DNA of 61,361 nt from Chiloscyllium plagiosum (Eukaryota): positions 31,343 to 92,703 of the forward strand of contig NC_057718.1 in NCBI RefSeq assembly GCF_004010195.1, given 5' to 3'. Below, in pieces: positions 3,770 to 57,643 of the stretch. Within the stretch, counting starts at the first letter, position 1. The number at the start of each line of letters is the position of its first letter. Both the position numbers and the translations under genes were made by a program. The notes beneath the pieces were generated by a model. The model did not search any database, was not told the origin of the DNA, and saw only the letters and a list, made by a program, of their open reading frames with translations.

Positions 3770-6620
3770 TCCCACATTCTGTTCCAAAAATCCCATGAGG
3801 AATGTTGAGACTGGGGGATGGCTCAGTTCTTTCCTGGTGGACTCCAGAACCACTCAATCACCTGCACCTCCCTCAGCGGAACACACCTCGAGCTCTGAGA
3901 CAGTCCGAATCATGGGGGCTTCAGGAATACCCATGGTGGAACCACTGTCCCATCCCGTGCAGTTCAGCGTAGGACCAGACACGGTCCCACATGCTGCCAT
4001 CATCTCTGCCTCCTGTCCAGTTGCTCTCCTGGGTTGCCAGACGCTGTGCAAGTTAAATGTCAGCATCCATTGCTCCCCGCAAGGTCTCACACTCGAGATC
4101 CCTGAAGCAAACTATTCCAAGGTGCAGGCAGCCATCTCCCACAGCCCCAAGTCCTCCGACCAGGCACACTCCTGCTACACCTGGTTGCGCCCACCAGAAC
4201 TTACTCGCGTCCTTCTTGACCCTCTCCTCTCCCGGCTATCAACCACCCCTTCATCCTCCATGTTATCCTTCTTCCAGTGGGTGACATGGACAGGCCACTT
4301 TGTGCATCTTCTGACCCACAGGAACAGGCATCAGTATATGCTGCTATTGCAGACTCACATCTCGAGCTCACCTCCCCACTAAAGATCACTGGCAAGTACT
4401 TTGTTGGACTGCAGGGTGTTGCAGCAGAAGTGCAATTCAGCTCAGACCCCGTGGCTCCCCAAAAATCTAGGAACCATGATAGCACGGCTCATGCAACCAC
4501 CACTACATTTCACACCCCTTGAGCAAGACACAGACCCCTTAGTGGACAAGACGAGTTTTGTGCACACTGCGCTCCTGCATTGCTACAAGTTACTTTTACA
4601 AAAGGGAGCCCAGATGCAGCCCCCTCCTATGACAGCCCCCTCTATTAGCTGATCTCTCGAATCCACTGTGGGCACAGCACTGGAACCACACAGGCCAGGT
4701 GTTGTCCACCCCACCCCATACAGTTACACTCAGACAGGGAGCGTCCTACCGTCAACACGACAATATCTGTTATCACTCACAGCAGGAGAGAGGATCAAAC
4801 CAGTTATTGACTCACTTCTGCAACAGGGAGTCCAAGTGCCCACAACCAGTCTGAGCAACACGCCCATCTCACCTATCCCAAAGCCCGGAAGACCAGGCAT
4901 GAATGCTATCCTGACCAATATCCTCGGTCCACCACCTACTTCTCTGTAATCAACCTATGCTCAGCCTTCTTCTCCATTAAATTGTCCCCTGAAAGCCAAT
5001 ACCTTTTTGCTTTTATATGCGGCAGCTGCCAATATACATCAACCCGGCTTCCCCAAGGGTATATGGAGAGCCCCACAGTTTATGCTGCTGCAGTACCCTG
5101 CACCCTGTCCACCATCCACCTGCCATGCCACAGCATCCTCCTCCATAATGTGGATGATCTGCTATTGGCTGCTGCTCTGCTGCTCCATGTATGCAGGATA
5201 CGGTGACCTTGCTCCACTGTCGAGAAAATGCAGCTCTGTCAGCGAAAAGTCCAGGATCTGGGGTGTGACCTTTCACATGGCCTCAGAGCAATGTCCCGGG
5301 AGCAGTGGCTGCCAGTCCCCAACTTTCCCCCACCTGCCACAAAGACGCAACTGCAAGCTTTTCTGCGGATGGTAAACTACTGCAGGCATTGGACCTCTGA
5401 TCACCTTGTCATTGACGCACCTCTGTGGGATGCAACTTCTCCTGAACAGCCAGCCAAAGTGAAGTTGACACCCAAAATGGAATGGGCATTCACTGAACTG
5501 AAGCAACAACTAATCTCTGCTCCTGCTCTGCGAGTCCCAGATTACTCACAGCTCTTCTATCTTTATGTAACTGAGTCAGGGTTTGTGTCCGGCATCTTAA
5601 TGCAGCTTCATGGGGATCTCGGTCACCCTGTTGCCTTTTATTCTGTACATTTCCCACTTGTTGTGAGGAAATGCCGGCATGTTAGCGTGTGGTAGAAGCA
5701 GCTGCAGTGACAGTGGATAAGGCCACCCCCATTATGCTAGATCACTTATGTACTGTTTTGGTCCCACACTCGGTCTCCCAGCTGCTTAATTCAGCAGCAA
5801 CCCAACATTTTACTGCAACTCAGAGAACTGGCTATGAAATTGTTTTGCTATCTAAGGCAAATCTCTCCCTACAGCCTCAAACCCCACCACCCTCCTCCCG
5901 CTCGCCCAGTCTGATGCTGTGGATTACCATGACTGTTTAGACGTGGTTCAGCAGATCGCTACCCCATGTCGTGACCTGTCCGAGACACCTCTAGAAAACT
6001 CTGACCTGATACTTTTCACTCACGGCCCTTTGTTCCAGCCATCAGACCAATGCACATTAGCAGGATAGGCCATCTGTAACCCCTTCACCACCTTGGAATC
6101 AGCTGCATTACCAGATGGGGCATCCACAGAGGCTGCAGAGCTCTTTGCTCTCAACAGAGCCTTCATCCTGGCAAAGGGTAGTACAACCAACCTCTACACG
6201 ACCTCCTGAAGAAGGGCTAATGCCCGAAACATCGATTCTCCTGTTCCCTGGATACTGCCTGACCTGCTGCGCTTTTCCAGCAACACATTTTCAGCTCTGA
6301 TCTCCAGCATCTGCAGTCCTCACTTTCTCCTCTACACAGACTCCAGGTATGCCTTTGACACAATATGGAATCAGAAGGGGTTCCTCACCTGGGCAGGGAG
6401 ACCACTCCAACATGCTGCACTCATCACCAACCTCCGAGAAGCAGTCCTGCTACCCTTTGCTGTAGCAATTATAAAACGTGCCACCCACACGTCTGCCACC
6501 GATCCCGTCACCCAAAGGAACACCGCAGCTGATGCAACAGCCCGGGAAGCTGTACTACACCTGTCCACCAATGTCCTGCAGACCCCGGGTGGCAAAACCT
6601 CCAGACCTCCAGAGTAGGCA
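3770..6620 (+). mobile_element. Endogenous retrovirus pro-pol remnant, class I epsilon-like (protease, RT, connection, RNase H)
   Basis: FLVDSRT (protease site), LLGCQTLCKL, PLWAQH, NTPISPIPKPG, SQYLFAF, LPQGYMESP, HNVDDLL, QLQAFLRMVNYCRHW, GHPVAFYS, VPHSVSQLL...TGYEIVLL, AAELFAL, NLYT/DSRYAF, RNTAADATA. Many stops and frameshifts. Confidence 0.88.
6200..6328 (+). mobile_element. Short PLE-derived element with hammerhead motif, inserted in the ERV RNase H
   Basis: TSD cctctacac at 6191-6199 and 6329-6337; CTGAAGA-A-GGGC-TAAT-GCCC-GAAAC-ATC at 6206-6233. Confidence 0.85.
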
Positions 6621-6624
6621 TGTC

Positions 6625-9405
6625 CCTTTGAAAACAAGGGATAGGAAAGGCAAGATTCATGAACTGTGAATGACAGGAGAAATTGTGTGATTAACCCAAG
6701 AGGAAAAGGAAAGCGTACATAAGGTCCAGGCAGCTAAGAACAGAACAGGCCCCGGAGGAATATCGGGAGGATAGGACCAATCTTAAATGAGGAATCAAAA
6801 GAGTGAAAAGGGGTCATGAAATAACTTTAGTGAGCAGAATTAAGGAGAATCCCAAGTCATTTTATTCATATATATGGAGGGTAACTCGAGAAAGGATTGG
6901 TCCACTAAAGGATAATGAAGGAAGGTTGTGTGTCAAACCTGAGAAAATGGGTGAGATTCTCAATGATTACTTTGCATCACTGAGGAGAGGGACATGATGA
7001 ATGTTGAGATTAGAGATAGAAGTTTGATTACTCTGGATCACATTGACATAAGGAGGGAGGGTGTGTTGGGCAGGCTAAAGGATATTAAGGTGGACAAATC
7101 CCCAGGACCGGATGGGATCTATCCCAGGTTGCTGTGGGACATGAGAGAGGAAATAGCTGAGCCCCTGACAGGTATCTTTGTACCATCCTTCAACACAGGG
7201 GAGGTGCCGGAGAACTGGAGAGTTGCTAATATTGTCCCCCTGTTCAAGAAGAGTAGTAGGGATATTCTAAAAACTACAGACCAGAGAGCCTGACGTCAGT
7301 GGTGGGAAAGTTACTGGAGAAGGTACTGAGGGAACAGGATCTATTTATATTTGGAAGAGAATGGGCTTATCGTAATAGGCAACATGACTTTGTGTGGGGA
7401 AGATCGTGCCTTACCAACTTAATAGAGTGACCTTTGAGGAAGTGACCAAGTTGACAGATGAAGGAAGGGCTGTAGATGTCATATACATGGACTTTAGTAA
7501 AGCAGTTGATAAGGTTCCCCATGTACACTAATGAAGAAAGTGAAGTCACATAGTGTGCATGGTGTCCTAGCTAGGTGGATAAAGAACTGGATTAGTGGTG
7601 CTGGAAGAGCACAGCAGTTCAGGCAGCATCCGAGGACAGGCAAAATCTGAGGACAGGCCTGGTTGAGCAATAGGAGACAGAGAGTAGTGGTTGAAGGGAG
7701 TTTATCAAAATGGAGAAAGGTGCCCAGTGGTGTTCCACAGGGATCAGTGCTGGGGCCACTGTTGTTTGTGATATACATAAATGATCTGGAAGAGGGCATT
7801 GTTGGCATGATCATCAAGTTTGCAGAAAGACACGAAGATTGGTGGAGTAGCAGAAAGCATAAGGGACTGTCAAAGTATACAGGAGAATATAGATAGACTT
7901 AGAAAATTGGGTGGAGAAGTGGCAGATGGAGTTCAGTCCAGGCAAATGTGAGGTGATACATTTTGGGAAGTCTAATTCTACAGCGAACTATACTGTAAAC
8001 AGAAGAACCTTGAGAAAAGTTGATGAGCAGAGAGATCTGGGAGTTCAGGTCCATTGTACCCTGAAGGTTACTGCACAGGTGGATAGAGTGGTCAAGAAGG
8101 CACATGGTATGCTTGTCTTCATCGGAGTGGGTATTGAATGTAAGAGTTGGCAGGTCATGTTAAAATTGTACAAGACTTGGTTCGGCTGCATTTAAAATAC
8201 TGTGTACAGTTCTGGTCACCACATTATCAAAGGATGTGGATGCTTTGGAGAGGGTGCAGAGAAGGTTTACGTGGATGTTGCCTGGTATGGAAGGTGCTAG
8301 CTATGAAGAGAGGCTGAGTAGGTTAGGATTGCTTTCATTAGAAAAAAGGAGATTGAGGGGGCACCTGATTGAAGTGTATAAAATCATGAAGGGTATAGAC
8401 AGAGTAGATAGAGATAAGCTTTTTTTTTCAAAAATATACTTTATTCATAAATAATTTGATGGTCTGTACAATTGGTCATGCCATACGTATGTAAACATTT
8501 ACATACAGAGTTCAAAACTCATCATTTTTATACAGGTCTGTACATTTTTTGATCATATGCCCATATAATTAGCTGAGGCGTCAGCAGAGCCCAAATGACT
8601 GCATGGGCCCCCTTGTTCTTCGTTAGGCAGGCAGACTTTACACAGTGGTTTTTCCCCACCGCGCCTTGGCGGCAGCTGCCCCAAGCTTCAGCGCGTCCCT
8701 CAACACGTAGTCCTGGACCATGGAATGTGCCAGTCTGCAATACTCAGTCGGGGTCAACTTCTTCAGCTGAAAGATCAGCAGGTTTCGGACCATCCAGAGA
8801 GCGTCCTTCACCGAGTTGATGATCCTCCAGGCACAGTTGATGTTCGTCTCGGTGTGCGTCCCGGGGAACAGGCTGTAGAGCACGGAGTCCCGCATCACTG
8901 CGCCCAGGCCCATCCTTCGCAACACCGGGGACAGGTAGAACCTCAGTACGTAGTGACACTTGGTGTTTGCGTACCGGGGATCCATGCACAGCTTGATGCA
9001 GCCACACACAAAGGTGGCCATCAGGGTGAGGGTGGCATTGGGTGTATTTTTTCCCCCGTTGCCCAGAGTAGATAGAGATAAGCTTTTTCCCAGGATGAGG
9101 GATTCAATAATGAGAGGACACGCTTTGAAAGTGAGAGGAGAAAAGTTTCAGAGGGATACACGCAGAAAGTACTTTACACAGAGGGTGGTGGGTGCTTGGA
9201 ACGTGTTGCCAGGAGAGGTAGTAGAGGCAAGCACGGTAGATTCACTTAAGGTGTATCTGGACAGATGCATGAGTAGGTGGGGAGCAGAGGGATACAGATG
9301 CTTAGGAATTGGGCGATAGGTTTAGAAGGTGGAATTGGATTGGCTCAGGCTTGGAGGGACGAAGGGCCTGTTCCTGGGCTGTAAATGTTCTTTATTCTTT
9401 GTTCT
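6625..9405 (+). mobile_element. Decayed CR1 ORF2 and 3'UTR, interrupted by a short PLE fragment (~7590-7660) and a Tx1/L1 insertion
   Basis: [42 protein letters not shown] motifs; 3' tail ttctttattctttgttct at ~9388-9405. Confidence 0.92.
8420..9063 (-). mobile_element. Tx1/L1-clade LINE 3' fragment with poly(A) tail
   Basis: TSD of 20 bp or more, cagagtagatagagataagc, at 8400-8419 and 9064-9083; T-run at 8420-8428; C-terminal ORF2-like peptide (VKDALWMVRNLLIFQ...VQDYVLRD); internally deleted. Confidence 0.8.
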
Positions 9406-10900
9406 AACCCAAATCCTAACAGTAGCCCTGGCCTTAAGCATAAACCTAATCCTATACCTAAAACTAATCCAAGCTATAACCCCAAATCTAACTGTCACCA
9501 CCCATATCCCTAAACCCAAAATGACCCCAACCCTAACTCTAACTCTAAAGTCTAACCCTCAGACGAACCTTAACCAGAAATCTAACATTAACAGTAAAAC
9601 TAAACACTAACCCTAACACAAATACTATCCTTAAAACCAACCCTGACCTCTAAACCTCACCCTAACCTAAACCTAACCCTAGCCCTAACCTCTAACCCTC
9701 ACCCGAACCCAAAACTAACAATCTTGCATTGCCGAACCCTAACTGTAAAAAGAAAACTGACCTAACCCAAATCCTAAACCAAAAATTCCAAACTCACACA
9801 CCAACCTTCGCACAACCCACAACATAACACTTACCTTATGCCTAACACTCACGCTCACACTATACCGGACCCTGATATAATCCTAACACTAACTCGACCC
9901 TAACACTACCCTTAATCCTAACCCTAAGGCTAACTATAACCTTAACCCTCACCTTCACCTAATGCTAACACCAACCACAAAATTACCATCCCCTTCATCC
10001 TAACCCTAACTCTAAATCTAGAGATAATACTAATCCATAGCCAAACCCTACCCCTAAACCTCATCCTAACCCTAACCCTCAGTCTAACCCTAACCCTATC
10101 ACTCTAACCATCACCTTTACCCAAATCCTTATGGTAACCCTAAACCTAAACTTCATGCTAACCCTAAACCTAGCCAACATCCTAACCCTAAACATGACCC
10201 TAACTCTAACCATCACATTAACCATAACCTTCAAACTAACCAAATCATCACTCTCACCCTTACCCTTAACTTCACCCTCTCCCAAATCCTAACACTAATC
10301 CCTAAATAACCCTAACTCTAACCCTGAACTGAGCCTTAATGTGAACCATAACATTAAACTAACTCCAACCGTAAACCTAAATACACACCAACCTTAACTC
10401 TGACCTTAAACCTAACCCTAAACTTAACCTAACTGTACCCATCATACTAAACCTCACCCTAAGTCCTCAACCTAAGCCTACTCCTAACCCAAACTTTAAC
10501 CTTAACACTAACACTAAACTCTAATTATCATGCGAAACCTCATATTAACCATAATCCTAAACCCTAACTTTACCCCAACCTAACCCTAAACCCAAAATCT
10601 TAACCCCTAACCCAAAGCCTAACCCTAATCTCCAAACCCTATCATAAATCTGATATTCACCCCAATTTTATTGCCCACCCTATTCCTTTCCCTTACCCTT
10701 AACCCTAATCCTTACCATCACCATCACCTGACCCTTGCCCTAAACCCAACCCAAAGCCTTACCTTGACACTAACCCTGATACTCACCCTAATCCTGACTC
10801 TAACCCTGACCCTGGCCCTAACTCTAACGCTCACCCTGAATCGCACCCTTATCCTAACCCTAATCTTAGCCAAATCCCTTCCACTTTCCCTACCCTAACT
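9405..10900. repeat. Degenerate telomere-like hexamer array (CCCTAA)n, interstitial
   Basis: About 1.5 kb of CCCTAA and variants (CTCTAA, CACTAA, CCTAAA, CCCTCA, CCCTTA); G is nearly absent from the + strand. Confidence 0.9.
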
Positions 10901-15264: not shown

Positions 15265-15583
15265 GGGCGGCACGGTGGCACAGTGGTTAGCACTGCTGCC
15301 TCACAGCGCCTGAGACCCGGGTTCAATTCCCGCCTCAGGCGACTGACTGTGTGGAGTTTGCACGTTCTCCCCGTGTCTGCATGGGTTTCCTCTGGGTGAT
15401 CCGGTTTCCTCCCACAGTCCAAAAGATGTGCAGGGTCAGGTGAATTGGCCATGCTAAATTGCCCGTAGTGTTAGGTAAGGGGTAAATGTAGGGGTATGGG
15501 TGGGTTTCGCTTCGGCGGGTCGGTGTGGACTTGTTGGGCCGAAGGGCCTGTTTCCACACTGTAATGTAATCTAATCTAATCTA
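15265..15583 (+). mobile_element. Full-length HE1 SINE (tRNA-derived V-SINE)
   Basis: A box tggcacagtgg, B box ggttcaattccc, central V-domain tgtgtggagtttgcacgttctccccgtgtctgc, CR1-like tail ggccgaagggcctgt, (AATCT)n end. Confidence 0.93.
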
Positions 15584-17848: not shown

Positions 17849-18115
17849 AGGTAAAAACAAGGACTGCAGATACTGGAAACCAGATTCTAGATTAGAGTAG
17901 TGCTGGAAAAGCACAGCAGGTCAGGCAGCATCCGAGGAGCAGGAAAATCGACATTTTTGGCAAAAGCCCTTCATATGGAATAACACCCTGTGAAGGGCTT
18001 TTGCCTGAAACATCAAGTTTCCTGCTCCTTGGATTCTGCCTGACCTACTGTGTTTTTCTAGCAGCACTCAAATCTAGACTCTTGTTTCCAGCATCTGCAG
18101 TCCTTGTTTTTACCT
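17849..18115. mobile_element. Symmetric fold-back PLE-derived element (arms ~125 bp)
   Basis: aggtaaaaacaaggactgcagat... is the reverse complement of ...atctgcagtccttgtttttacct; degenerate hammerhead cores flank the centre. Confidence 0.85.
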
Positions 18116-18130
18116 GTATTAACCATTAGC

Positions 18131-18350
18131 TGAAAATGTGTTGCTGGAAAAACGCAGCAGGTCAGGCAGCATCCAAGGAGCAGGAGAATCGACGTTTCGG
18201 GCATGAGCCCTTCTTCAGGAATCCTGAAGAAGGGCTCATGCCCGAAACATCGATTCTCCTGCTCCTTGGATGCTGCCTGACCTGCTGCACTTTTCCAGTA
18301 ACACATTTTCAGCTCTGATCTCCAGCACCTGCAGTCTTCACTTTCCCCTC
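18131..18350 (+). mobile_element. Fold-back PLE-derived element with two opposed hammerhead motifs
   Basis: 14 bp TSD tattaaccattagc at 18117-18130 and 18351-18364; ~90 bp inverted arms plus a ~35 bp unpaired 3' tail. Confidence 0.9.
18219..18256 (+). ncRNA. Minimal type I hammerhead ribozyme motif
   Basis: GAATC-CTGAAGA-A-GGGC-TCAT-GCCC-GAAAC-ATC-GATTC: stem I 5 bp, stem II 4 bp. The triplet is AUC here and GUC in the minus-strand arm. Confidence 0.75.
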
Positions 18351-18476
18351 TATTAACCATTAGCCAATTCACAGTGACTAACTCCTGTTTTACAGTTATA
18401 ATATAGTTATTATGGGTCTCATACCAGATACTTTGATTAATAACTTCAATGGTGCTTACTTTTATCTCTACTATAG

Positions 18477-19378
18477 TTAATCTACTAGGAATTATGATCC
18501 TGTCCTGTGGCAAGTGTGGCCTCTCCACATGCACCACATGCTACCTGATGGCAATGGCAATGGCAGATCTCCTTTCCATTATCATGGTTGTCATACTCTG
18601 GGAGATCAGTTGGTATTATCTCCCTTGGACATTTTTGCACATAACTCCTGTGTGTACAGCAGTTGCTGTCCTGATGTCTGCAGCCGTAGATTGTTCTGTT
18701 TGGTTTACTTTCACTTTCTCCTTTGATCGATTTGTGGCCATTTGTTGCCCAAAGCTGAAAATAAAATATTGCACGAAGAAATCTGCATCAGTGGTTCTAA
18801 CTACAACCTGCATTCTGCTGTGCATTAGGAACATCCCCTTCTCCTTTATCTATGAACCATGGAAGATAATCAACAACGTTCCGTGGTACTGTGACCTAAA
18901 GCCAAGCTATTATGTTGATCCAGGTTGGGTGGCATTTGATTTGTTTGATAAAATTATAAACCCATTGCTTCCTTTTGTTCTAATCCTGTTGTCCAACACA
19001 CTGATGGTAAGACACATTGTGGTGACTAGTCGAGTCCGCAAGGAACTGAAGAGTCAAAGAAAGGGGGGATGTCTCAATGACCCAGAGATGGAGAGCAGAA
19101 GGAAGTCTATGATTTTACTCTTCGCAATATCTGGCAGCTTCATCCTCCTTTGGTTGGTGTATGTTATTGAATTAATTTATCGTAACATTACAGGAAAAGA
19201 TCCTGAGAATTACAATGATTCTGAATATGTATTTCTACATGTCAGTCAGATGCTGCGGAATTTAAACAGTTCTACCAACACATTCATTTATGGGATTACT
19301 CAATCCAAGTTCAGGCAGCAGCTCAAAAGTGCCATTAAATATCCATTAGTAGCAATCAGGCGATTAATGAAGAAATAA
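18477..19378 (+). CDS. GPR139/GPR142-like class A orphan GPCR, coding exon 2 (spliced product about 322 aa)
   Basis: Pyrimidine tract and TAG acceptor at 18475-18476 join in phase (G+TT = Val). Intact ORF with hydrophobic TM segments and YLMAMAMADL, FSFDRFVAIC, DPEMESRRKSMILL, NTFIY, KFRQQL. AATAAA overlaps the stop. Confidence 0.9.
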
Positions 19379-22494: not shown

Positions 22495-24778
22495 GCAGGG
22501 CACTGGAAAATCACAACAGGTCAGGCAGCATCTGAGTACCAGGAGAGTTGGTGTTTTGGGCATAAGCCCTTCATCAAGAATTTGGGAGGAGGGGTAGGGG
22601 GCAAAGAGATAAACAGGAGGGTGGGAGTAGGAATGAGAGTGGGGGAAAGGTAGCTGGAAACCCGATAGGTAGGTACAGGTCAGGGGTGACAGGGATAGGG
22701 TGGAGGGGAAGATGGAGCGAACAGATCTGAAGGAAGATGGACTGATAGGACAGATGAAGAGGACGGTGCTGAGTTGGAGGTTTGGATCTGGGATGAGATG
22801 GGGTAGAGGGGAGATAAGGAAACTGTTGAAATTCACATTGATTCAGTGTGTTTGGAGGGTTCCATGCCGGGGGGGGGGTGTTCTTCCTCCAGGTGTCAGG
22901 TGGCTACAGTTTGATGGTAGAGGAGGCCCGGGTCTTGCATGCCCTTGGTGGAGTGTCATAGAGTCATAGAGATGTACAGCATGGAAACAGACCCTTCGGA
23001 ACAACCCCTCCATGCCGACCAGATATCCAAACCCAATCTAGTCCCACCTGCAAGCACCCAGCCCATATCCCTACAAACCCTTCCTATTCATAAACCCATC
23101 CAAATGCCTCTTAAATGTTGCAATTGTACCAGCCTTCACCACTTCCTCTGGCAGCTCATTCCATACACGTACCACCCTCTGTGTGAAAAAGTTGCCCCTT
23201 AGCTCTCTTTTATATCTTTCCCCTCTCACCCTAAATCTATGCCCTCTAGTTCTGGAGGTGTGGTTTTCTGGTGCGTGTGTCTAAGAGATGTCCCTTGAAA
23301 TGCTCTGCGAGTTGATGTCCTGTCTCCTCAATGTAGTGCAGACCATATCGAGAGTGAAAGACACCGTCAATTTGCTGCTTGGAAAATTCTGCCAGATGTG
23401 AAAAGATCCTTTGGGACTTTGGACAGAGGTGATGGAGAAGGTGTAGGTACAGGTTTTACAGCTCTTGTGGTGGCAAGCCAACATGCTGGAAGTGGAGGGT
23501 AGGTTGGTACGGTGTGTACACCTAATGAGGAAGGCACAGTGGGTATGGTCTCAGTGGAACACAGTTAGGGGTGGGGAGGGAAATATATCTCTGGTGGTAG
23601 GGTTTGATTATAGGTGGCAGAAATTGTGGAGCATAGTGTGCTGTATCCGGGCATTAGATTAGATTCCCTACAGCGTGCAAACAGGCCCTTCGGCCCAACC
23701 AGTCCACACCGACCCTCCGAAGAGTAACCCACCCAGACCCATTTCCCACTGACTAATGCACCCAGCACTATGGACAATTTAACATGGCCAATTCACCTGA
23801 CCTGCACATCTTTAGACTGTGGGAGGAAACCGGAGAACCCAGAGGAAACCCATGCAGACATGGGGAAAATGTGCAAACTCCTCACAGTCGCCCAAGGCTG
23901 GAATCGAACCTGGGACCCTGATGCTGTTAGGCAGCAGTGCGAACCATTGAGCCACCGTGTCGCATTAGTGGGGTGAAAGATAAGGACCAAGGGGGGGTGT
24001 AAAGTTTTTGCAGTTGGAGGGGTGGGGTTCAAGGGCAGAGGTGCAGAAGTGGAGGAGATATGCTAGAGGGCATTGTTAATCATGTGGGAAGGAAATTTGT
24101 GATCCTTGAAATAGGAAGTCATCTTGGACATCCTGGAGTAGATTTGCTCCTTCGGGGATAACACACAGCAGAGGCACAAGAATTACAAATAAGGGATAGA
24201 GTTTTTACAGAAGGGAGAGTGGGAGGAGGTGAAGTCCAGTTAGCTGTGGGGTCTGTGGGTTTGAAATAGAATGTCCATGTTGAGTTGGTCTCCAAAAATG
24301 GAGACAGAGAGGTCCAGGAAGGAATGGGAGGTTTCTGAGATTGCCGAGGTGAACTTAACTTCAGAGTGGAAGGTGTGAGTGAAGTTGGTGTACTGCTCAC
24401 CCTCTCATGGGAGCACGTGATGGCTCCAGTACAGCTGTCAATATTGCAGGGGAAAAGGTAGGGGTTGGTGCCAGTGTAACTGCAGCACTGCCCTCTTGAA
24501 CTGTCCGACCTGTCCATCTTCCTTCCCATCTGTCCATCCCACCCTATCACCCCCCACATTCATCTACCTATCGCCTATCCAGCTACCTTCCCCCCATCCT
24601 CACACGCACCTTCCCGTTTATCTCTCAGCCCCCTCACCCCCTCCACTTTCCTGATGAAGGACTTATCCCCGAAACGCCGACTCTCCTGCTCCTTGATGCT
24701 GCCTGACCTGCTCTGCTTTTCCAGGTGCAATGCTTTTTGACTCTGACTCTCCAGCATCTGCAGTCCTCGCTTTCTCCT
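22495..24778 (-). mobile_element. Penelope-like element remnant with inverted terminal repeats, containing nested CR1 (~22953-23255) and HE1 (23658-23961)
   Basis: RT and GIY-YIG-like remnants (FYFKPTD, CKTCTYT, GSFHIWQNF); ~24485-24778 is an inverted copy of ~22495-22775; degenerate hammerhead cores at ~22555-22580 (-) and 24651-24680 (+). Confidence 0.8.
23658..23961 (-). mobile_element. HE1 SINE
   Basis: Head, V-domain and tail present; TSD gcattag at 23651-23657 and 23962-23968. Confidence 0.9.
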
Positions 24779-30003: not shown

Positions 30004-30236
30004 GAGCTGAAAAATGTGTTGCTGGAAAAGCGCAGCAGGTCAGGCAGCATTCAAAGAACAGGAGAATCGACGTTTCAGGCATAAGCCTTTCTTCAGGAAT
30101 GAGCTCATTCCTGAAGAAGGGCTCATCCCCGAAATGTCGATTCTCCTGCTCCTTGGATGCTGCCTGACCTGCTGCGCATTTCCAGCAACACATTTTTCAG
30201 CTCTGATCTCCAGCATCTGCAGTCTTCACTTTCTCC
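30004..30236 (+). mobile_element. Fold-back PLE-derived element with two opposed hammerhead motifs
   Basis: 14 bp TSD attctgattatatt at 29990-30003 and 30237-30250; perfect central palindrome cttcaggaatgagctcattcctgaag. Confidence 0.9.
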
Positions 30237-32125: not shown

Positions 32126-32220
32126 CCAACGTGCAAACTCCATACAGTCAGTCGTCTGAGGCAGGAATTGAACGTGGGTCTCTGGCTGTGAGGTAGCAGT
32201 GCTAACCACTGTGCCGCCCA

Positions 32221-42890: not shown

Positions 42891-43929
42891 GATGGGACTC
42901 TTATGTTTGGGATGCATGTGCTTTGCATGTAATTGTTTCCAGCATTTGTTTGAAATGTCTAACACTTTCCCAATGACCATAAAGAACTACAATTGTTAAA
43001 TTGTTTTGGTGTTGAAACCTGAGCTTGATTATTTTTCAGTAGAAGCAATTTGTGACCCCTTGTAATAACAGATTTGTCATCCTGTAATGTCAACCTTGGA
43101 GAAGATAGTGTCAGCCTTTGAAAGACTTGGAAAAATCTAGTGGAGGAATGCTGTCTATTTTTAAAATTTTTTTTTAAAAGTTGCAATTGTCTTGAAATTA
43201 AAATCCCTCCCTATTAAATGATTCTTTCCAATTGACAGTTTTTGATGTAAAGCTCTTTTATAACAAAGAACATTAAACACAGGTACAGGCTGCTCGTTCC
43301 ACCAGAACTGTGCCAACACATGATGCCTTTTTAAAGAAAAATGTTTTGCATCTATGTGACTTGTATCCCCTCTTCCCTGCTGAATCATACAAGACTGCAA
43401 TATATAGGAGTTAAGAGTGTGGTGCTGGAAAAGCACAGCAGGTCAGGTAGCATCCAAGAAGTAGGAGGATTGATGTTTCGGGCACAAGGATATAGGAGCA
43501 GAGTTTGGCCATTTAGATCATTGAGTCTGCTCTGCCATTAGCTGATACTTTTCACAAGTCCATTTTCCTAAATCTTCCACATAACCCTTGATTCCATTAC
43601 CAGTCAAGAGCTTATCTATCTCTGTCTTAAATATACTCAATCTCTCAGCCTTCACAGCCCTCTGCGGCAATGAATTCCATAAATTAACTGAATGCTGGCT
43701 GAAGGCATTTCTCCATCTATCAGTTCTAAACAGTCGCCCCTTCACTCAGAGGCAATGCATTCTTGCCTTGTCTCACCTGCTATTGGAAACATCTACTCCA
43801 TATCCTTTCTATCCAGGACTCTCAACATTCTCTACGTTTCAATTAGATCATCCATCCTTCTTCTAAACTGAATCAAGTACAGACGAAGAGTATTGGCTCT
43901 GCATATGATAAGCCCTTCATCCCCGAGGA

Positions 43930-47708: not shown

Positions 47709-50027
47709 GTGCAGAGAATTCTAAAAGATTTGTCAGGTATGATCTCCATTTGATGAAGCCATGCTGACTCAGCTGTATTTAACCACGCATTTCCAAGTAC
47801 ATCACAACCTTATCCTTAATAACTCTAACTAACAAACGGCGCAGTTCCCTGTCTTCTGGTTCCCTCTCTTTTTAAGCGGGGGTACAACATTAGCCATTTT
47901 CCCCATCCCTCTGGCACCGTCCCTGACTCCAGTGATTCATGACAGGACCCCAACAAGGCCTTTATGATCTTTTCAGTTATCTCATTCAGAACTCTGGGGT
48001 TCAACCACCTGCAGATCTTTTAGCTTCATCATCACTTCCTTGTGAGAGTTGGCACTTTATTAATTTCTTCCCATGACTCCACTGAAGTTCTGGTATAGAA
48101 ATCTCAAGATGCCTGGTGACGGCTCTACAGTACCCACCTCCACCACCTCCTCTGGCAGCCTATTCCAGGCACTTACCACACTCTCCATGAAATAAAAAAC
48201 AAAACTGACATATTCCGTAAATCTATGCCTCTTCATATTTGATATGTCTTCCCTGGATAAAGGAGTCTGACTATCTATTCTAATCATACCTCTCATAAAT
48301 TTGCAACTTCTATCAGGTCCCCCTTCGTCTCCGATGTTCAAGTGAAAACAAAACAAGTTTGTCCAATCTCTCGTCATAGCAAATACCCTCCAAACCAGGC
48401 AACATCTTACTAAACCGCTTCTGCACCCTTTGCAAAGTCTCCATAGTCTTCTGGTATTGTGGCAGTCAGAAATACATACAATCTCCCAAATGTGACTGAA
48501 GTAAATTTCTATACAGCTGTAACATGATGTGTTACAGCTCTCTATGCACTGACCAGTGAAAGCAAACTCACCACATTCCTTCTTAACCGCTTTTTCCACT
48601 TGTGTTGCCAGTTTCAGGGAAGTTGGAGTTATATGCCCAGATCCTTCTGCATGTTTATGCTGCTGAGGGTTCAGCCCTGTACTGTATACTTTATTCATCC
48701 AGTTGATATTCCAAAGTACATTAGCTGGAATTTGTCTGCATAATTTGGTATTTCCATGCCAAATTATATTATTTACCTATGTATTGCTACTCTGGCTTAT
48801 CTATAACCCTAAGCCTAAGCATAATCCTTCTCATTATCCTCAGTTCCCCCAATCGGTTTGTTGTCTGAAAGCTTGCTGATCAGGTCACCTACATTCTCCT
48901 CCAAATCATGATGTATATTTTACAAACAACAAGGCTCCCAGCACAAATCCCTGCCTAACACCACTTGTCACAGGTCTTCAGTCAGAAAGGCATTATTCCT
49001 CTGCTAGTCTTTTTTGTTTTGGTCTATTATTGTCACATCTATGTAGCTCGGACAAAAAGGTTTGTTTTGTGTTCAGAACAGACAAATTGTAGCATAAAAA
49101 CTGAATAAGGTTAATAGAACTGAGTGAGAAATACAATGTTACCACTGACGAATAGGTGCATAAAGAGCAAGATCAACACTTGTTTTAAAATTGAGACGTC
49201 CATTCAGAAACCTAGTAACAGTGGAGAATAAGCTGTTCTTGCATCTGTTGGTATGTCTGTTTAAGCATTTTATCTTTTGCCCGACAAAGAAGGTAGGAAG
49301 GGATTATAACTGGTGGGGAAGTGGTCTTTGATGATGTTCGCTGCCTCTCTGCGGCAGCAAGAAGTATAGATAGAGTCAATAGATGGAAGGTCAACTTGTA
49401 TGAAGGACTGGACAATGCTCACAACTCTGTGTGGTTTCTTACGGTCCTCAGCAGAGCAGCTGCCATACTAAACCATTATACATTCTTATAGAATGCTTTT
49501 TATGGTGCATCCACAAAAGTTTGGAACAGTCTTTATGGAAGTGCTAAATTTCCTTAGCCTCCGAGGGAAGTAGAGAAGTTATTCTTCTTTCCTGAACCTC
49601 GCATTAACCTAACTGCTGATGATTGTCACTCCTGAGAACTTGATACTGTTGACCATCTTCACCTCACTTCCATTGGTAAAGATAAGACAGCGTTCGTCAC
49701 TTTGCTTCCGGAAGTCAATAACCAGCTCTTTCGTTTTGCATTAGTTGAGGGAGAGATTGTTATCTTTACACCACCCCATGAAGCACTGTACCTCTTTCCT
49801 GTATTCTATCTCATCATTGCTTGACCTAAGTAAGGCTCACTGGCCTGTAATTTCCCAAATTATCCCCGCTGCCCTTCTTGAACAAAGAAACAAAATTAGC
49901 AATTCCCCAGTTGTCTGGGACTTCTCCAGTGACTAAAGAGGATACAAAAGTTTCATACAAGCTTCCTGGAAATTTCCTCACGTGCATACCTCAGCATCCT
50001 GGTACAGAACACTGTAATCTAATCAGT

Positions 50028-50342
50028 TAGATAAGATTCTCTACAGTGTGGAAACAGGCCCTTCGGCCCAACAAGTCCACACCGACCGTCCGAACAGCAA
50101 CCCACCCAGATCCATTTCCCTCTGACTCATACACCTAGCACTATGGGAAATTTAGCATGGCCAATTCACCTGACCTGCACATCTCTGGATTGTGGGAGGA
50201 AACCGGAGCACCCAGAGGAAACCCACACAGACACGGGGAGAATATGCAGACTCCACACAGACAGTCGCCCGAAGCTGGAATCAAACCTGGCACCCTGGTG
50301 CTGTGAGGCAGCAGTGCTAAATACTGCGCCACCGTGCCACCC
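50028..50342 (-). mobile_element. Full-length HE1 SINE
   Basis: Reverse complement of head, V-domain and CR1-like tail. Confidence 0.9.
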
Positions 50343-51039: not shown

Positions 51040-53400
51040 AGAGATTATACACATTAGACCTGTTTTCTCCAGAATTTAGGAGGTGAAAGGATGATTTGAT
51101 GCAAGTTTTAGTAAAATTAACTAGAAAATGCAGCGCTGATAATGATAAATTATTTTCACGAATTGGGGAGCAGAGTGCAAATATTAGAGCAATGTCATTC
51201 ATGACAGATGTTAAGAAGCACTTCTCCGTACAAAGATTGTTACAGGTGTGAACTCTCCAATGAACTTCAGTTGGTGCTTGATCAGTTGCTAACTTTAAGT
51301 CTAACTTTTGATGGGTAAGGTGTTAATGACCAAAGGCAGGTACTGTATATCGTGTTGGGCCAAAGATCAGTCACGACATCATTGAATAGCAGAGCAGGTT
51401 TGAGGAGCTGAATGGCCTGTTTGCTTCCATATGTTTCTATTTCCTTTACCTCATAACAGAGGAATCTGAGGCGAGGAAATGTTTGTCCTGTACAAAATTA
51501 GATGGAGGAAGCAGAAATCACTTTTTCCTCTTTGGTGGGGGGGATCAATAATTGTAAATTTATACTAAAGGGCAGGTGTTTTAGAAGGATGTGAGGAAAA
51601 AGGTGGTTTCACCGATTGGGGCTGGTGACAATCTAGAACTCACTGCCCTGCAATGGTGGTACGGACCAAAAAACACCTGCAGTTTCTGGAATCCGAAATA
51701 GACAATCAGGAGGCTGGAAGAACTCAGCAAGCCAAGCAGCATCAGGAGGTGGAGAATTCGACATTTCAGCTGTAACCCTGCTTCAGGTTGGAGCACCATG
51801 AGTAGGTCAAAACTTGGAGGGTTTAAAACGTACTTGTGGTCCTTGAGGGATGAGATGGTTGCAAAAACAGCAGCTGAGGAATGTCACGTGGCTGTAGTAG
51901 CGAGTTTCTTTAATCGTACGATCAAACAGCTGGAGGGCTGAGGAGGTCACCGCATTGTGACAGTGAGAAAGAGGCTCAACGAGTGCACATCTGAGGGAGG
52001 CAGAGAACTTCTTCAAAGTGGGCACCCTTTGAAGAGACTTTGCAGTGCAAAAAACTTGGTTAGAGACAAAAAAACTGCAGATGTTGGAATCAAAAGTAAA
52101 CAATCAGGAGGCTGCAAGAACACAGCAAGCCAACCAGCATCAGGAGGTGGAAACTTCGACATTTCGGCTGTAACTCTTTTTCGGGCCTGCTTCTCTACTC
52201 TGCAAAGGTGGTAGGGGCAGGGATCAACCCTGGGACCACAGGTTTTACATTAACGATCTGGAAGAAGAAACTGAGGGTGTTTTTGCTAAGTTTGCAGATA
52301 ACACAAGGATAGGTAGAGGGACAGTAGTACTGAGGTGGCCGAGAGGCTGCAGAAGAACTCGGACAGGCTTGGGATTAAGCAAAGAAGAGTCAGATGTAAT
52401 AATGTAGGGGGACAAGCTGAGAATAGTTCACAGGTCAGCTCAACATCAAGGGCTAAAGGGCCTGTTCTGTGCTGTATTGTTCTATGTATTATGTAATACA
52501 TTGTGAAAAAATGCGAGGCTATGCATTTTGGTAGAAAGCATAAAGATGTCGATGTTTTATTTAATGCCAGTAGGCATCAGAAATCTGAAGGAAAAGGGAC
52601 TCAGGAATAAAGAAACAAGGAACTGCAGATGCTGGAAATCAGAAACAAAAAGGAAATTGCTGGAAAAATTCACTAGGTCTGGCAGTATCCATGGAGACAA
52701 TGCCAAATTAACGACTTAGTTCCAATGACACTTCTCTGAAGGGGAGTTAGGATTCTAGTATAGGATTCCATTAAGGTTGACATGGAGGTTCAGTTGGCAG
52801 GAAGAAGGAAAATAGATTTCTTGTTATACATCTATAAAACATTGCTTCGGCCACAGATGGAGTACTGAGTTCACTGTTGGTTGTCACACTATCAAAAGGA
52901 CATTATTTAACGTGAGGTTGAAGAGAAAAGGATTCAACAGAGTGTTTCTGGGATGAAATGTCTCAATTATGCAGAGACATTGGATAGGCTGGTTTGTTTT
53001 CAGAGCAATGGAGGCTGAGGGGGATCTGACTGAGGTTTGAAATGATGCGATGCTTTGACCGAGTAGATTGTGAGAATCTCTTCCCCATAGCAGATGAATT
53101 AAAGACAAGGAGGCATACATTTAAGGTGAGAAGCAAATAGTTTAGAGGAAATTTGATGAAGATTTATTATTCACCCAGAGGATGGTGGAAACATGGAACA
53201 TGCTGATTGAGGGGGTGATGGAGCCTAATAGTCTCGCAATATTCAGGAAGCATCTGGATGAATATTTAAAATATTGGGGCATTGAAGGTTCTGGACCAAG
53301 TGCAGGTGAATGTGATCAGTGTAGTTTGTCATTTGCTGGATGGCAGAGACATGTAGGGATGAAGGACCTGCTTCTGTGCTGTCAGACTCCATGACTGTAA
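51040..53400 (+). mobile_element. Old CR1 3' fragments with short PLE-derived inserts (~51665-51790, ~52065-52185, ~52610-52745)
   Basis: FADNTRIG and MVETWNML peptides; inserts resemble the ctgcagatgctgga...cgacatttc PLE terminal repeat. Confidence 0.65.
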
Positions 53401-53860: not shown

Positions 53861-55029
53861 TTGTTGTTGTGGTTCTGTTCGCTGAGCTGGGAATTTGTGT
53901 TGCAGATGTTTCGTCCCCTGTCTAGGTGACATCCTCAGTGCTTGGGAGCCTCCTGTGAAACGCTTCTGTGATATTTCCTCCGGCATTTATAGTGATTTGT
54001 ACCTGCCGCTTCCGCTTGTCAGTTCCAGCTGTCCGTTGCAGTGGTCGGTATATTGGGTCCAGGTCAATATGCTTTTGATTGAATCAGTGGATGAATGTCA
54101 TGCCTCTAGGAATTCCCTGGCTGTTCTCTGTTCTCTACAAAGGTATACAGGAAAGCCACACACACGGACCAAGTCCTAAACTACGAAAGCAACCACCCCA
54201 ACACACACAAAAGAAGTTGCATCAAGACACTGTTCAAAAGGGCCACAACACACTGCAGTACATCAGAACTGCAAAAAGAGGAAGAAGAACACCTATACAA
54301 TGTACTCGCCAAAAACGGATACCCCCACAATTTCATCAACAGATGCCTAAGGGAAAGACAATGGAATGAGGACTTGCCACAACCCAAAGGACTAGCCACA
54401 CTACCATACATCAAAAACATTTCCGAACTGACAGCCAGACTACTGCGACCACCAGGACTCATAACAGCACACAAACCAACAGCCACTCTCAGACAACAAC
54501 TCACCAGGACAAAGGACCCGATACCCAGCTTGAGCAAAACCAATGCAGTGTACAAAATCCCATGCAAGGACTGCACAAAACACTACATAGGACAAACAGG
54601 AAGACAGCTAACGATCCGCATCCATGAACACCAACTAGCCACGAAACGACATGACCAGCCACACACTCAGATGACAAGCAACATGAGTTCAACTGGGACA
54701 ACACTACTATTATAGGACAAGCCAAACAGAGAACAGCCAGGGAATTCCTAGAGGCATGGCACTCATCCACAGATTCAATCAATAAGCACATTGACCTGGA
54801 CCCAATAACCGACCACTGCAATGGACAGCTGGAACTGACAACCGGAAGCGGCAGGTACAAACCACTATAAATGCCAGAGGAAACATATAGAAGCGCTTCA
54901 CAGGAGGCTCCCAAGCACTGAGGATGTCACCTAGACAGGGGACGAAACGTCTGCAACACAAATTCCCAGTTCGGTAAACAGAACCACAACAACGAGCACC
55001 TGAGCTACAAGTCTTCTCTCAAACTTTGA
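53861..55029 (+). mobile_element. 5'-truncated Penelope element: inverted 5' pLTR, RT thumb plus GIY-YIG remnant, 3' pLTR with tail
   Basis: TSD acaggatg at 53853-53860 and 55030-55037; 53864-54131 is the reverse complement of ~54725-54993; NGYPHNFI, TLPYIKNISE, VYKIPCKDC...YIGQTGRQL...RIHEH. Confidence 0.93.
54915..54954 (+). ncRNA. Minimal type I hammerhead ribozyme motif in the Penelope pLTR
   Basis: GCA-CTGAGGA-T-GTCACCT-AGAC-AGGGGAC-GAAAC-GTC-TGC; predicted cleavage after C54951. An inverted copy lies at ~53902-53942. Confidence 0.85.
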
Positions 55030-56235
55030 ACAGGATGATGTGTTTGTGAAAATAAATATGCATTAAATGTTCTCAATATGCGAAGTCTTCTTGTCTATGT
55101 AGTGAACTCACTCTGAAAAGAGTACGGAGAATTACAGACTTTTCTGCAGTCTCAATATTAACGAGTGAAAGAGAAAGGGATAATGGATTTATAATACATT
55201 GACTGCAAGGAAGATTGCTTCAGTTTTCAATGTTGTTCGTCAGACAAAAACGAATATCTAGCCAATGAATTTAGCGTCACGAAGCATATTCTAACTTCTA
55301 AATTTCCAAGTGAGTTTTGGCGCTGTTGTGAGAAAGAGTCGAAATGCTAATGGGATGAGGTGGTGTCTTTCTGGAACTGAACAACATTCTGGGGAAGTTT
55401 CTGTGCTTAAGTTGTTTTTCATCAAGATATTTGTGAAGTCGGATTGCTAAACTTTGATATCTACATGCGCTTGGCATTACGTTTCTGTATAAGTAAGTTG
55501 GGTGAAGTTTGCGAAGGAGATTAGAGATGAACTCAGCTAACTTCTGCGTGAAACAGCAAGAGGCAAAAATAGTTTGAGAGTCATTGGAAAGATGTCTTCG
55601 CAATTGTAGGCAAATGGCCAGTTTGACTTCGCTTTCTAAGTAAGACCATGCAAGTGAACGGACTGCAGTTCAATACTCATGATAGCACAGGATATACATG
55701 TACATATTTTCAGTAAAATATTAGCTATGTTTAAGGAAAATATCATCGTCTTGAAAACGTAATGATATGCAACGTTATTATGTTGTACAACGCATGAACA
55801 CACAGAGAAAACACCCTTGACAGAGATAATGACTTACTTTGACAAACAACGCAACCAGTTAAAGTGGCGTGTTACCCACGCGCACATTTGATATATTTTC
55901 TTTCTCAGTCTAAAAATGATTACAGGTTTCATCTGAATTTTTCCAAACAGATATAACAGGCATAAAACATGCGAAAACATGATTTGCAATATCTTAGATA
56001 GCTTCAATGCATTCCTTCCTGGAAAAGCGTTTGCACTTCCTCGCTAACATTTTCATTACTATAATGGAGATTACATTCTTTCAGTTGTATGCATTGTACG
56101 GGAACATTTCTATTGGATTAGTATGGATATGAATTTGCAGTCGCAGCTATGTAATTTTAATTACTTCATGCAATATAAATATGTTCGTGGTTTCAGTAAG
56201 AAAGATGAAGAGATGGAGAGTTACAGATCAGCTTC

Positions 56236-56610
56236 CTTATGAAGGACTTTTGCCCGAAACGTTGATTTTCTTGTTCATCGGATGCTTCCAGACCTGCATA
56301 AAAGCAAATTACTGCAGATGCTGGAATCTGAAACAAAAAAGAGAAAATGCTGGAAAATCTCAGTAAGTCTGGCAGCATCTGTAAGGAGAGAAAAGAGCTG
56401 ACGTTTCGAGTGTAACTGACCATTTGACCCTTTTTGACAAAGAGTCAGTAGACTCGAAACGTCAGCTCTTTTCTCTCCTTACAGATGTTGCCAGACTCGC
56501 TGAGAGTTTCTAGCATTTTCTCTTTTTTGGCTTCCTGACCTGCTGCGCTTTTCCAGCACCACTCTAATCTAGACTCTGATTTCCAGCATCTGCAGTCCTC
56601 ACTTTTGCCG
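56236..56610 (+). mobile_element. Short PLE-derived element containing a nested fold-back element of another family (56298-56529)
   Basis: TSD gcttcc(a/t)gacctgc at 56284-56297 and 56530-56543; inverted arms around ~56425. Confidence 0.82.
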
Positions 56611-57464
56611 AGTGTGGGAATGTGGCTGACTGTGTGGGATTGTGTGTGGCTGTGTCTGTGTAAGGAGAGAGTTGGATTCATCTCTGATAAAGATTCATAG
56701 AAGAATATTTAAGTATAAGTCTATTTTTCTGTGAATCTGTGGTGACTGTGTCAGAGTGTGTGAATGCATGGATGAGTGTGTTTTTGGTTGTGAGAGAGGG
56801 TTTCAGCATCAGTTTTGTGTGAGATTTAGAAAGTGAGAGCGAGAGTGGGAGAAAGAGTGATGGAGGACATATTTACCAAAGTACGACCGTGTGTGAACTA
56901 GAAACTCGAAAGAGATATTAATATCGTCAATTAAAGGGAAACCCTGACGTAGAGAGATTCACAACCAGACTTCCTCACATCCCTCATATAATTTCCAGGC
57001 AGTAACTAGCAACTTGACTCTACATCATAGTAATTTTCTGATACCAACAACATACCCTGGACAGTAATGTTTAATCAATTTCTCATAATTTTTAAGGCAG
57101 TCCCTTCTTCTTTCAACTCAACTTACTAACATGAATCATATTGCACTGTTATAGTTCATCTGCCAATGTTTGAAAAATACAATTCACATGATACAGACAG
57201 CAAAGTAGATGATTGGATGGGATGTAGTGAACTCTGTTACACTCAGTAACTTCATGTTGCAATTTTATAACATCCAGTCAAAACTCTGCCCTGCCACAGG
57301 GAAAATCCACACTGGGTCTGGAAATGTGGACTGGGCAGGGAACATTAATTTAATATGTCACTGAATAAGTGTGTAAATCTCTGCTGCATATGGACATTTC
57401 TGACATTACATTCCACTTGCCAACTACTTGCCCATGCAGTAAACCTGTCAATATCTTTTTACAG

Positions 57465-57643
57465 GAGAAAGTGAGGGCTGCAGGTGCTGGAGATCAGAGC
57501 TGAAAATGTGTTGCTGGAAAAGCGCAGCAGATCAGGCAGCATCCAAGGAACAGGAGAATCGATGGTTCGGGCATAAGCCCTTCCTGAAGAAACGTCGATT
57601 CTCCTGTTCCTTGGATGCTGCCTGACCTGCTGCGCTTTTCCAG
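57465..57643 (-). mobile_element. Fold-back PLE-derived element, centre partly deleted
   Basis: 16 bp TSD caatatctttttacag at 57449-57464 and 57644-57659; same family as 18131-18350. Confidence 0.88.

Follow-up and report, generated by a model that had tools for sequence, protein, structure and literature searches.

An inverted, 5'-truncated copy adjacent to the element and an extension of 30 to 40 bp (a tail) at one end are typical of Penelope-like elements (PLEs), according to the passages of PMC8557442 on their insertions, where Craig et al. 2021 cite Evgen'ev & Arkhipova 2005 and Arkhipova 2006 for such insertion units. Here we describe short fold-back insertions with predicted hammerhead ribozyme motifs in a 61-kb window of Chiloscyllium plagiosum (61,361 nucleotides of contig NC_057718.1, the whole stretch that was analysed), from which all 16 units of the sample were taken. 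An earlier interpretation, referred to below as the sequence-only reading, had taken these insertions for a distinct non-autonomous, ribozyme-bearing retroposon class and had named stereotyped truncation products as the alternative. We put at about three in four the probability that the units are dead-on-arrival PLE insertion products, made by PLE reverse transcriptase and GIY-YIG endonuclease, and that no self-propagating fold-back family exists.

For the anole element PAc (Poseidon of Anolis carolinensis), purified PLE protein has been described to nick and extend both strands, with two adjacent internal starts bounding the tail and a need for RNA located 3' of the start (PMC11167929). Ribozyme cleavage was unneeded for insertion of this element (Frangieh et al. 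2024, PMC11167929). Paired minimal hammerheads located 100-700 bp apart on opposite strands have been described in Schistosoma mansoni as 'probably related to truncated PLEs', and a core variant with U3-A8 has been described for Cercyon, with a flatworm PLE also named for that covariation (PMC4209133). According to passages of PMC7229834 and of a preprint by Li, Clavereau & Pollet 2026, the idea of non-autonomous hammerhead-bearing PLE derivatives has already been published for tandem retrozymes. Drosophila Penelope has an internal TATA-less promoter, and passages of PMC2377424 and PMC4209133 place its start site shortly upstream of the hammerhead.

Fold-back units and their junctions

Arm copies were collected by BLAST of one arm against the window and with an nhmmer profile (23 hits), by which all units proved to share one common module and additional copies were recovered. 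Turns and ends are numbered relative to C3/U3 of the hammerhead core, with negative numbers upstream.

An inverted, 5'-truncated copy adjoined a direct copy in eight units, which begin at 17851, 18131, 22495, 30004, 33848, 53864, 56298 and 57465. Across families the arms ended at two discrete places about 35 nt apart, and the longer end was usually found on one side of a fold-back; tailed ends were present on both sides of 17851-18116 and usually on one side of the other fold-backs. Tail lengths were 37-39 nt (18131), 33 nt (30004), about 36 nt (33848), about 34 nt (56298), 37 nt (53864) and about 46 nt (57465). The word TCCAGCA was present at two positions in the arms of families 1 and 2 (for example within 18290-18350), one about 13-16 nt short of the tailless end and the other about 21 nt short of the tail end, and the pair may be a duplicated signal for two start sites.

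Compared with the canonical endonuclease-positive (EN+) PLE as presented in the relevant passages of PMC8557442, the units were alike in the inverted copy abutting the direct one, the tail at one end, the heavy 5' truncation, the terminal-repeat hammerhead and the GIY-YIG body. They differed in that most were cut to 130-270 bp and retained the terminal module only, and in that truncation points clustered at the 5' edge of the ribozyme core, a feature not found stated in those passages. The long coding units 22495-24778 and 53864-55029 were likewise composed of an inverted copy, a direct copy and a tail, with turns far from the ribozyme.

The six short insertions listed in the sequence-only reading (6200-6328, 18131-18350, 30004-30236, 33848-34048, 56298-56529 and 57465-57643) were located where it had placed them, and their target-site duplications (TSDs) of 9, 14, 14, 10, 14 and 16 bp were all reproduced, including the one-mismatch case at 56298. 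A null distribution was obtained from 3000 random placements for each of two spans (130 and 220). Exact matches of at least 9 bp occurred in 15/3000 placements at span 130, while at span 220 exact matches of at least 14 bp occurred in 3/3000 and one-mismatch matches of at least 14 bp in 12/3000. The TSDs of the six insertions are far longer than chance gives, and the view that these were retro-type insertions with a PLE tail and TSDs of variable length was borne out.

The four copies of subfamily 1a were 86-96% alike and consisted of one solo arm and three fold-backs. The solo arm (6200-6328, plus strand) bears a tail, starts 2-7 nt upstream of CTGAAGA and is flanked by the 9-bp TSD CCTCTACAC (6191-6199 and 6329-6337); it is located inside a pol remnant of a long terminal repeat (LTR) retrotransposon at 4811-6614 (RVT_1, RT_RNaseH_2, weak RNase_H). 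Fold-back 18131-18350 (plus strand) comprises a tailless inverted arm (18131-18220) and a tail-bearing direct arm (18221-18350), turns at -4/-1 with an AAT spacer and has the 14-bp TSD TATTAACCATTAGC. Fold-back 30004-30236 (plus strand) is a perfect palindrome at its turn, with both arms ending at -7 and the 14-bp TSD ATTCTGATTATATT, while 57465-57643 (minus strand) turns inside the core at about +6/+21, retains no intact hammerhead on either strand and has the 16-bp TSD CAATATCTTTTTACAG.

The turns of the three 1a fold-backs therefore stood at -4/-1, -7/-7 and +6/+21, and mapping of the inversion point against the core, as the sequence-only reading had proposed, found no inherited junction among them. 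The tailless ends coincided in the fold-backs, in the solo arm 43411-43489 and in the long copies. As the 1a junctions differ and the tailless ends coincide, the fold-back was made anew at each insertion and was not the replicating unit. With a fold-back master subjected to 5' truncation, the turns should be constant and the outer ends variable, which is the opposite of what was observed in the window. A private extra T is common to both arms of 30004-30236 and indicates that they were derived from one source. Two template RNAs were considered for these arms as two sites match other copies, and this candidate was rejected since the arm is transition-rich and the private T is shared.

Two further fold-backs belong to subfamily 1b. 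In 33848-34048 (minus strand, 10-bp TSD ATTTACTATC) the arm with the tail is the left one and -9 is the end point of both arms, while 17851-18116 (no strand assigned) bears a tail on both arms and turns at about -8/-2 of a decayed core, with no TSD found. The family 2 fold-back 56298-56529 (minus strand) has its tail on the left and a 14-bp TSD with one mismatch, GCTTCC[A/T]GACCTGC, that is located inside a host arm. It had been claimed that all of the six insertions except the first turn just 5' of a CTGAnGA core. This was the case for 18131, 30004 and 33848, while 57465 turns inside the core and the core of 56298 reads TTGACAA.

In twin priming by L1, both ends of a staggered break prime, so that a single TSD encloses a direct 3' part and, joined to it, an inverted 5' part that was copied from further 5' in the same RNA. 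The fold-backs described here differ in that both arms appear to be copies of one 3' module, begun at defined internal start sites.

The RNA of 18131-18350 folded to -174.4 kcal/mol (z -25.6), and 0/200 shuffles folded as well, while single arms had no unusual stability (z -0.19 to 0.48). The fold-back RNA is thus predicted to form a near-perfect hairpin that locks the hammerhead in a duplex of roughly 90 bp.

Hammerhead motifs and PLE coding remnants

The loose pattern CTGANGA-N6-30-GAAAC had 10 matches in the window versus 1.2 expected, eight of them in arms, and 0/100 shuffles reached 10. A strict minimal-hammerhead descriptor had eight matches versus 0.025 expected, with a maximum of one in any of 200 block shuffles. 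The core boxes CUGANGA (or the U3/A8 form) and GAAA were arranged around a helix II hairpin, and there was no helix III hairpin. Helix II occurred as GGGC/GCCC, AGGC/GCCT, GAGTC/GACTC and GTC(A)CCT/AGG(G)GAC. An extra nucleotide was found in 8/8 minimal hammerheads and the G10.1-C11.1 pair in 7/8, the other, at 30096 on the minus strand, being A-U. The palindromic 15.1-16.1 tetrad, which would permit helix III to form in a dimer, was ACGT in 5/8 and ACAT, a CpG-type change, in the other three.

Family 2 is represented for this part by a single copy in the window, the plus-strand arm of 56298-56529, which has a complete hammerhead at 56434-56466 with U3/A8 instead of C3/G8 (TTGACAA-A-GAGTC..GACTC-GAAACGTC). 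The family 3 hammerhead has a larger helix II (CTGAGGA-T-GTCACCT..AGGGGAC-GAAACGTC). In 33848-34048, where a hammerhead had been reported, the right, tailless arm has an intact CTGATGA...GAAACGTC, while in the tail-bearing arm it was removed when about 46 nt were deleted between two GATG words. The full consensus core with GAAACGTC was kept in only 2/15 family 1 arms (18218 on the minus strand and 33951 on the plus strand), and core changes in the other family 1 arms were mostly transitions and CpG changes. The hammerhead is not maintained in family 1 arms.

The motifs share with the minimal hammerheads of metazoan PLEs (Cervera & De la Pena 2014) the core boxes, the G10.1-C11.1 pair, the lack of helix III with a palindromic ACGU, the occurrence of opposite-strand pairs and, in one copy, U3/A8. 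They differ in belonging to vertebrate (shark-type) families and in having pairs as close as 0-10 nt that are direct head-to-head joins. The arms carry predicted minimal type I hammerheads of the metazoan PLE type. Rfam gave no match in the window at gathering scores, and in E-value mode (E up to 10) no hammerhead family was matched, the only matches being sub-threshold ones of microRNA (miRNA), small nucleolar RNA and long non-coding RNA type. The absence of an Rfam hammerhead match fits a motif with no helix III hairpin, the coverage of the minimal variant by the Rfam models being unchecked. In metagenome scans the 32-nt hammerhead pattern was found at 0 loci, and a 19-mer of the arm was found at 48 loci, none of which matched more than 34 nt of the arm and which are therefore regarded as chance matches.

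Comparison of database relatives with the window by tblastn identified remnants of the reverse transcriptase C-terminus, zinc finger and GIY-YIG domain at 23383-23652 (minus), 24131-24322 (minus), 30892-31110 (minus), 31586-31963 (plus) and 54131-54931 (plus). Each remnant is located directly upstream of an arm and in the same orientation, which identifies the longer remnants as the bodies of PLEs and the arm as the 3' module of these elements. The zinc finger and GIY-YIG C-terminus typical of PLE open reading frames (ORFs) were also read by eye in frames upstream of arms, in the orientation of the arm itself. The arms of families 1, 2 and 4 are non-coding, with stop codons in all frames read.

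A 111-aa ORF representing a GIY-YIG C-terminus had 59 related proteins by phmmer and none in a search among longer proteins. The relatives P0014, P0027 and P0049 reached Pfam GIY-YIG at E-values of 0.0021, 0.00087 and 0.0069, below the Pfam cut-off, and in the Atlas one relative sits among clusters combining HTH_animal, GIY-YIG and RVT_1. Pfam gave no hit on the window's own PLE fragments, and a PDB search with a profile of 29 relatives was empty.

The third PLE family (53864-55029, plus strand) consists of a tailless inverted arm (53864-54132, 269 bp) and a tail-bearing direct arm (54133-55029, 897 bp) within an 11-bp TSD, ACAGGATG[T/A]TG, and has the order of a single ORF with reverse transcriptase followed by a C-terminal GIY-YIG domain. 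Its ORF at 54110-54712 had 15 longer relatives, of which 10 carried PF00078 (RVT_1), 14 carried PF26215 and one also carried PF01541 (GIY-YIG); the closest annotated relatives were uncharacterised carpet shark proteins with 87-89% identity. A GIY-YIG-type motif (...HYIGQTGRQL...HEH) was read by eye. Residues 8-54, at the N-terminus of a related PLE protein, are encoded by the family 3 arm (91% identity), and this is where the insertion stops. The hammerhead of this family is therefore inside the 5' coding region, and reverse transcription would have begun inside the ORF of the next unit.

The long unit 22495-24778 (plus strand, no clear TSD) has a tailless inverted arm of about 1.8-2 kb, which runs from 22495 to about 24.3-24.5 kb and contains the minus-strand reverse transcriptase C-terminal, zinc-finger and GIY-YIG remnants together with two nested repeats. 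Its direct arm (about 24478-24778) is at most 300 bp long, with a decayed hammerhead and a tail. A tailless PLE 3' part at 30582-31110 (minus strand) runs back into a minus-strand GIY-YIG C-terminus, and a zinc-finger and GIY-YIG coding remnant at 31586-31963 (plus strand) has lost its 3' module. The proposal that the longer remnants, 22495-24778 and the one from about 30582, end in the same module as the short insertions was confirmed, and the derivation of the arms from PLEs with minimal type I hammerhead motifs stood as well, given the homology to PLE 3' ends and the motif enrichment.

Proposed insertion mechanism, 5' ends and competing explanations

The arm is the PLE 3' module, with a minimal hammerhead followed by about 65 nt to the first 3' end or about 100 nt to the second. 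The two discrete 3' ends would represent two internal start sites of reverse transcription, and the 33-39 nt between them the tail. A staggered target break would give a variable duplication of 9-16 bp; priming from one DNA strand would result in a solo arm, and priming from both strands on the same RNA region would result in two cDNAs joined head to head, the fold-back. Each side would pick one of the two start sites, hence the tail usually on one side only. The homology of the arms to PLE 3' ends marked by GIY-YIG coding sequence, the TSDs, the two 3' ends, the differing junctions and the architecture of the long copies were all recorded in the window, while both-strand priming and internal initiation would follow the anole PLE.

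The units are similar to PAc in having two adjacent 3' ends that bound the tail, an AC-rich upstream end and a hammerhead that precedes the 3' end by about 65-100 nt. Family 3 adds an insertion whose end falls within the 5' part of the following ORF and a hammerhead in the 5' coding region, and TSDs were AT-rich in 5/9 units, again as in PAc. Unlike PAc, the arms of families 1, 2 and 4 are non-coding, and both-strand priming is deduced here from head-to-head products.

Several points weigh against dead-on-arrival PLE products as the full account. In families 1, 2 and 4 the window has C-terminal remnants and no reverse transcriptase domain itself, and the GIY-YIG assignment in these families comes from the sub-threshold Pfam scores of relatives and from motifs read by eye. 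TSDs were missing in 4/12 units tested, among them 17851-18116, the unit tailed on both sides. All four 1a copies are short with no long 1a copy in 61 kb, as a dedicated short master predicts. Both-strand priming and the need for 3' RNA are known for one anole element in vitro only. Random truncation does not account for the hot spot of 5' ends described below, and the sample is one of 16 units from a single window.

At least one arm ended within 10 nt upstream of C3/U3 in 7/16 units (6200, 17851, 18131, 30004, 33848, 56230 and 56298). A further candidate is the 5' repeat of the complete 51662-52199 unit, which starts at the core edge with an alignment ambiguous by about 14 nt. Of the other arm 5' ends, some were at +6, +10, +17, +21 and approximately +41, and others were located between 200 nt and 2 kb upstream. 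From the position of these ends, the hot spot may mark the 5' end of the PLE RNA, set by a transcription start with an internal promoter as in Drosophila Penelope, and the short copies may be run-off cDNAs begun at the arm near that end and not at the 3' arm, an explanation that we hold at slightly below even odds. Such cDNAs would end after about 130 nt and would give solo arms, or head-to-head pairs where both strands had primed.

A fuller version, which we consider less likely than not, treats the arm of about 130 nt as an R-like unit. Its left edge would be the PLE RNA 5' end, 4-9 nt upstream of the core, and its right edge the two start sites of reverse transcription; solo arms and fold-backs would be run-off cDNAs for which one strand of the target break, or both, had served as primer, and 51662-52199 would be a true mini-PLE. 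The latter (minus strand), from a fourth old family, is a non-coding unit of 538 bp in which two arms enclose 280 bp, flanked by a 14-bp TSD with one mismatch (TACCACC[T/A]TTGCAG). Its direct 118-nt arm repeats are 84% alike and spaced by 398 bp; the 280-bp core has open frames, with no similarity seen and no match elsewhere in the window. On this layout 51662-52199 is a candidate mini-PLE or retrozyme-like monomer.

The hot spot could instead reflect a reverse transcriptase block, or a template switch that is forced directly after copying of the hammerhead, for example by a second PLE subunit bound at the ribozyme, and the units would still be PLE by-products. The anole hammerhead cleaves only with PLE protein, which implies contact of the protein with that region, and a dimer is predicted (PMC11167929); ends scattered over -9 to -1 with no single base preferred would also agree with a block. 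However, the long copies 22495-24778 and 30582-31110 read straight past the same site, the complete 51662-52199 unit begins at the same place, and for Drosophila Penelope the passages cited above document an internal promoter close to the hammerhead. We consider a block unlikely, though it is the main alternative to the RNA 5' end.

It is improbable, and somewhat more so than a block, that a true non-autonomous lineage was at work, as the sequence-only reading had proposed. A short arm-only or mini-PLE RNA, carrying the hammerhead, the start sites of reverse transcription and the 3' binding region, would here derive from one or few masters and be mobilised in trans by PLE enzymes, as short interspersed elements (SINEs) are by long interspersed elements (LINEs) or as in animal non-LTR retrozymes, with fold-backs as its usual insertion form. 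Such a lineage would account for the 4/4 short 1a copies with 86-96% likeness and for the clustering of 5' ends at the core edge, and the complete 538-bp non-coding unit 51662-52199, with direct arm repeats, a 398-bp unit and a 14-bp TSD, has the layout that a mini-PLE needs. Against it, inserted arms end at the start sites of reverse transcription and so lack the 3' RNA needed by the anole enzyme, and each copy should therefore be inert; junctions differ among the 1a fold-backs, cores decay freely and no master is demonstrable in 61 kb.

Animal non-LTR retrozymes (Cervera & De la Pena 2020, PMC7229834, and the preprint named above) are alike in their small non-coding units, type I hammerhead, proposed dependence on PLE enzymes and TSDs of more than 4 bp when present. 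In retrozymes, units of 150-450 bp follow one another head to tail in tandem arrays, the hammerheads are canonical and circular RNAs occur, whereas the units here are inverted and non-tandem with a minimal motif, and only 51662-52199 (1.3 units of 398 bp) comes near. Tandem Repeats Finder detected no array over any arm in the window, where arms occur as inverted pairs or solos, and the lack of a tandem array of hammerhead units is a further point against the lineage. A distinct class is thus not upheld, as 1a junctions differ, tailless ends coincide, coding PLEs share the architecture, the hammerhead is predicted to be buried in the duplex of a fold-back RNA and most cores have decayed, and stereotyped truncation, which the sequence-only reading had offered as its own alternative, fits better. 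The observation itself is real and was accurately described, while its interpretation is only partly supported.

Determination of the 5' ends by hammerhead self-cleavage of the template RNA is very improbable. The motif is complete in eight arms and the cut is predicted to follow GAAAC(G)TC, at a distance of about 32 nt on the downstream side of C3, yet no mapped arm 5' end among the units in the window is at that site, the mapped ends being at -9 to -1 or at +6, +10, +17, +21 and +41. For the anole element, cleavage was not needed for insertion and no RNA-seq reads began or ended at the presumptive site (PMC11167929). One copy that appeared to start at the cleavage site (7582-7648) was dropped, as its 5' end is inside a 17-bp tandem duplication.

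Least credible are fold-back DNA transposons or others like miniature inverted-repeat transposable elements (MITEs), or hairpin RNA genes of miRNA type, for although long inverted repeats with flanking duplications and the sub-threshold miRNA precursor matches of Rfam E-value mode on fold-backs (for example 56.4 bits versus a gathering score of 160) would suggest them, no Rfam family was matched at its gathering score, homology links the arms with the 3' end of coding PLE copies, and in place of symmetric terminal inverted repeats and a family-specific TSD length there were asymmetric arms, a one-sided tail and TSDs of 9, 10, 14, 14, 14 and 16 bp, with lengths from 9 to 16 bp in one family.

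Other copies, neighbouring features and implications

Copies not listed in the earlier interpretation were 17851-18116, 43411-43489, 7582-7648, 52620-52700, 51662-52199 and 53864-55029. The fragment 7582-7648 (minus strand) is an old tailless arm with no TSD. The solo tailless arm 43411-43489 (minus strand) is 5'-truncated in stem II at about +17 and has the TSD ATATAGGAG, while 52620-52700 (minus strand) is a solo tail-bearing arm of family 2, 5'-truncated at about +41 and with no TSD. A solo tail-bearing 1b arm at 56230-56605 (plus strand, no TSD) starts at about -4 of a decayed core and is split by the nested fold-back 56298-56529.

PLE copies were twice found on other PLE copies. Fold-back 18131-18350 was inserted exactly at the tail end of 17851-18116 (18112-18131 region), and the family 2 fold-back (56284-56543 region) is nested in a family 1 arm. 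Such landings fit endonuclease homing to PLE ends (n=2). An intronless rhodopsin-type G protein-coupled receptor ORF (18437-19375, plus strand; 7tm_1, E-value 3.5e-22) starts 87 bp downstream of the two adjacent fold-backs 17851-18116 and 18131-18350.

The window is vertebrate DNA rich in repeats, in which three runs of N are masked and the G+C content is about 36-52% in most 2-kb windows, with 32% in one near the 3' end, and it contains LINE-type and LTR-type reverse transcriptase fragments. Among the sequencing runs listed for it, 20 contained all or part of the window, eight of them with at least half of its words and those of a related species with about 27%, and none was an RNA run. A LINE-type reverse transcriptase ORF of 506 aa (59842-61359, minus strand; RVT_1, E-value 2e-34) is open and reaches the window end. 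Copies of a SINE-like repeat of roughly 310 bp are located at 32128-32218, 23653-23963, 15267-15580 and 50027-50336, one of them nested in the long PLE arm. Other features include an ORF with a GDSL-type lipase domain (151-1026, minus strand; E-value 1.5e-10) and degenerate interstitial telomere-like (AACCCT)n arrays at 9566-10863, with a strong negative GC skew at 10-12 kb.

No new class of ribozyme-bearing retroposon was established, and the units are best regarded as ordinary products of PLE insertion, with the host lineage as the new element. In the annotation of genomes, hairpin-forming pieces of 130-270 bp may, in numbers of hundreds of thousands, be scored as miRNA-like, MITE or unknown repeats in shark-type genomes, for which PLE terminal modules would be the proper label. 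Mechanistic PLE data come from one anole element in vitro, and the genomic copies described here are independent evidence of two discrete 3' ends and of the head-to-head products that priming on both strands should give. Where the PLE RNA starts is a testable prediction that follows from the clustered 5' ends. If the R-like arrangement holds, fold-backs and solo arms would be an in vivo fossil record of target-primed reverse transcription on both strands and of PLE transcription start, and 51662-52199 would link PLE terminal repeats to the retrozyme-like repeats of vertebrates.

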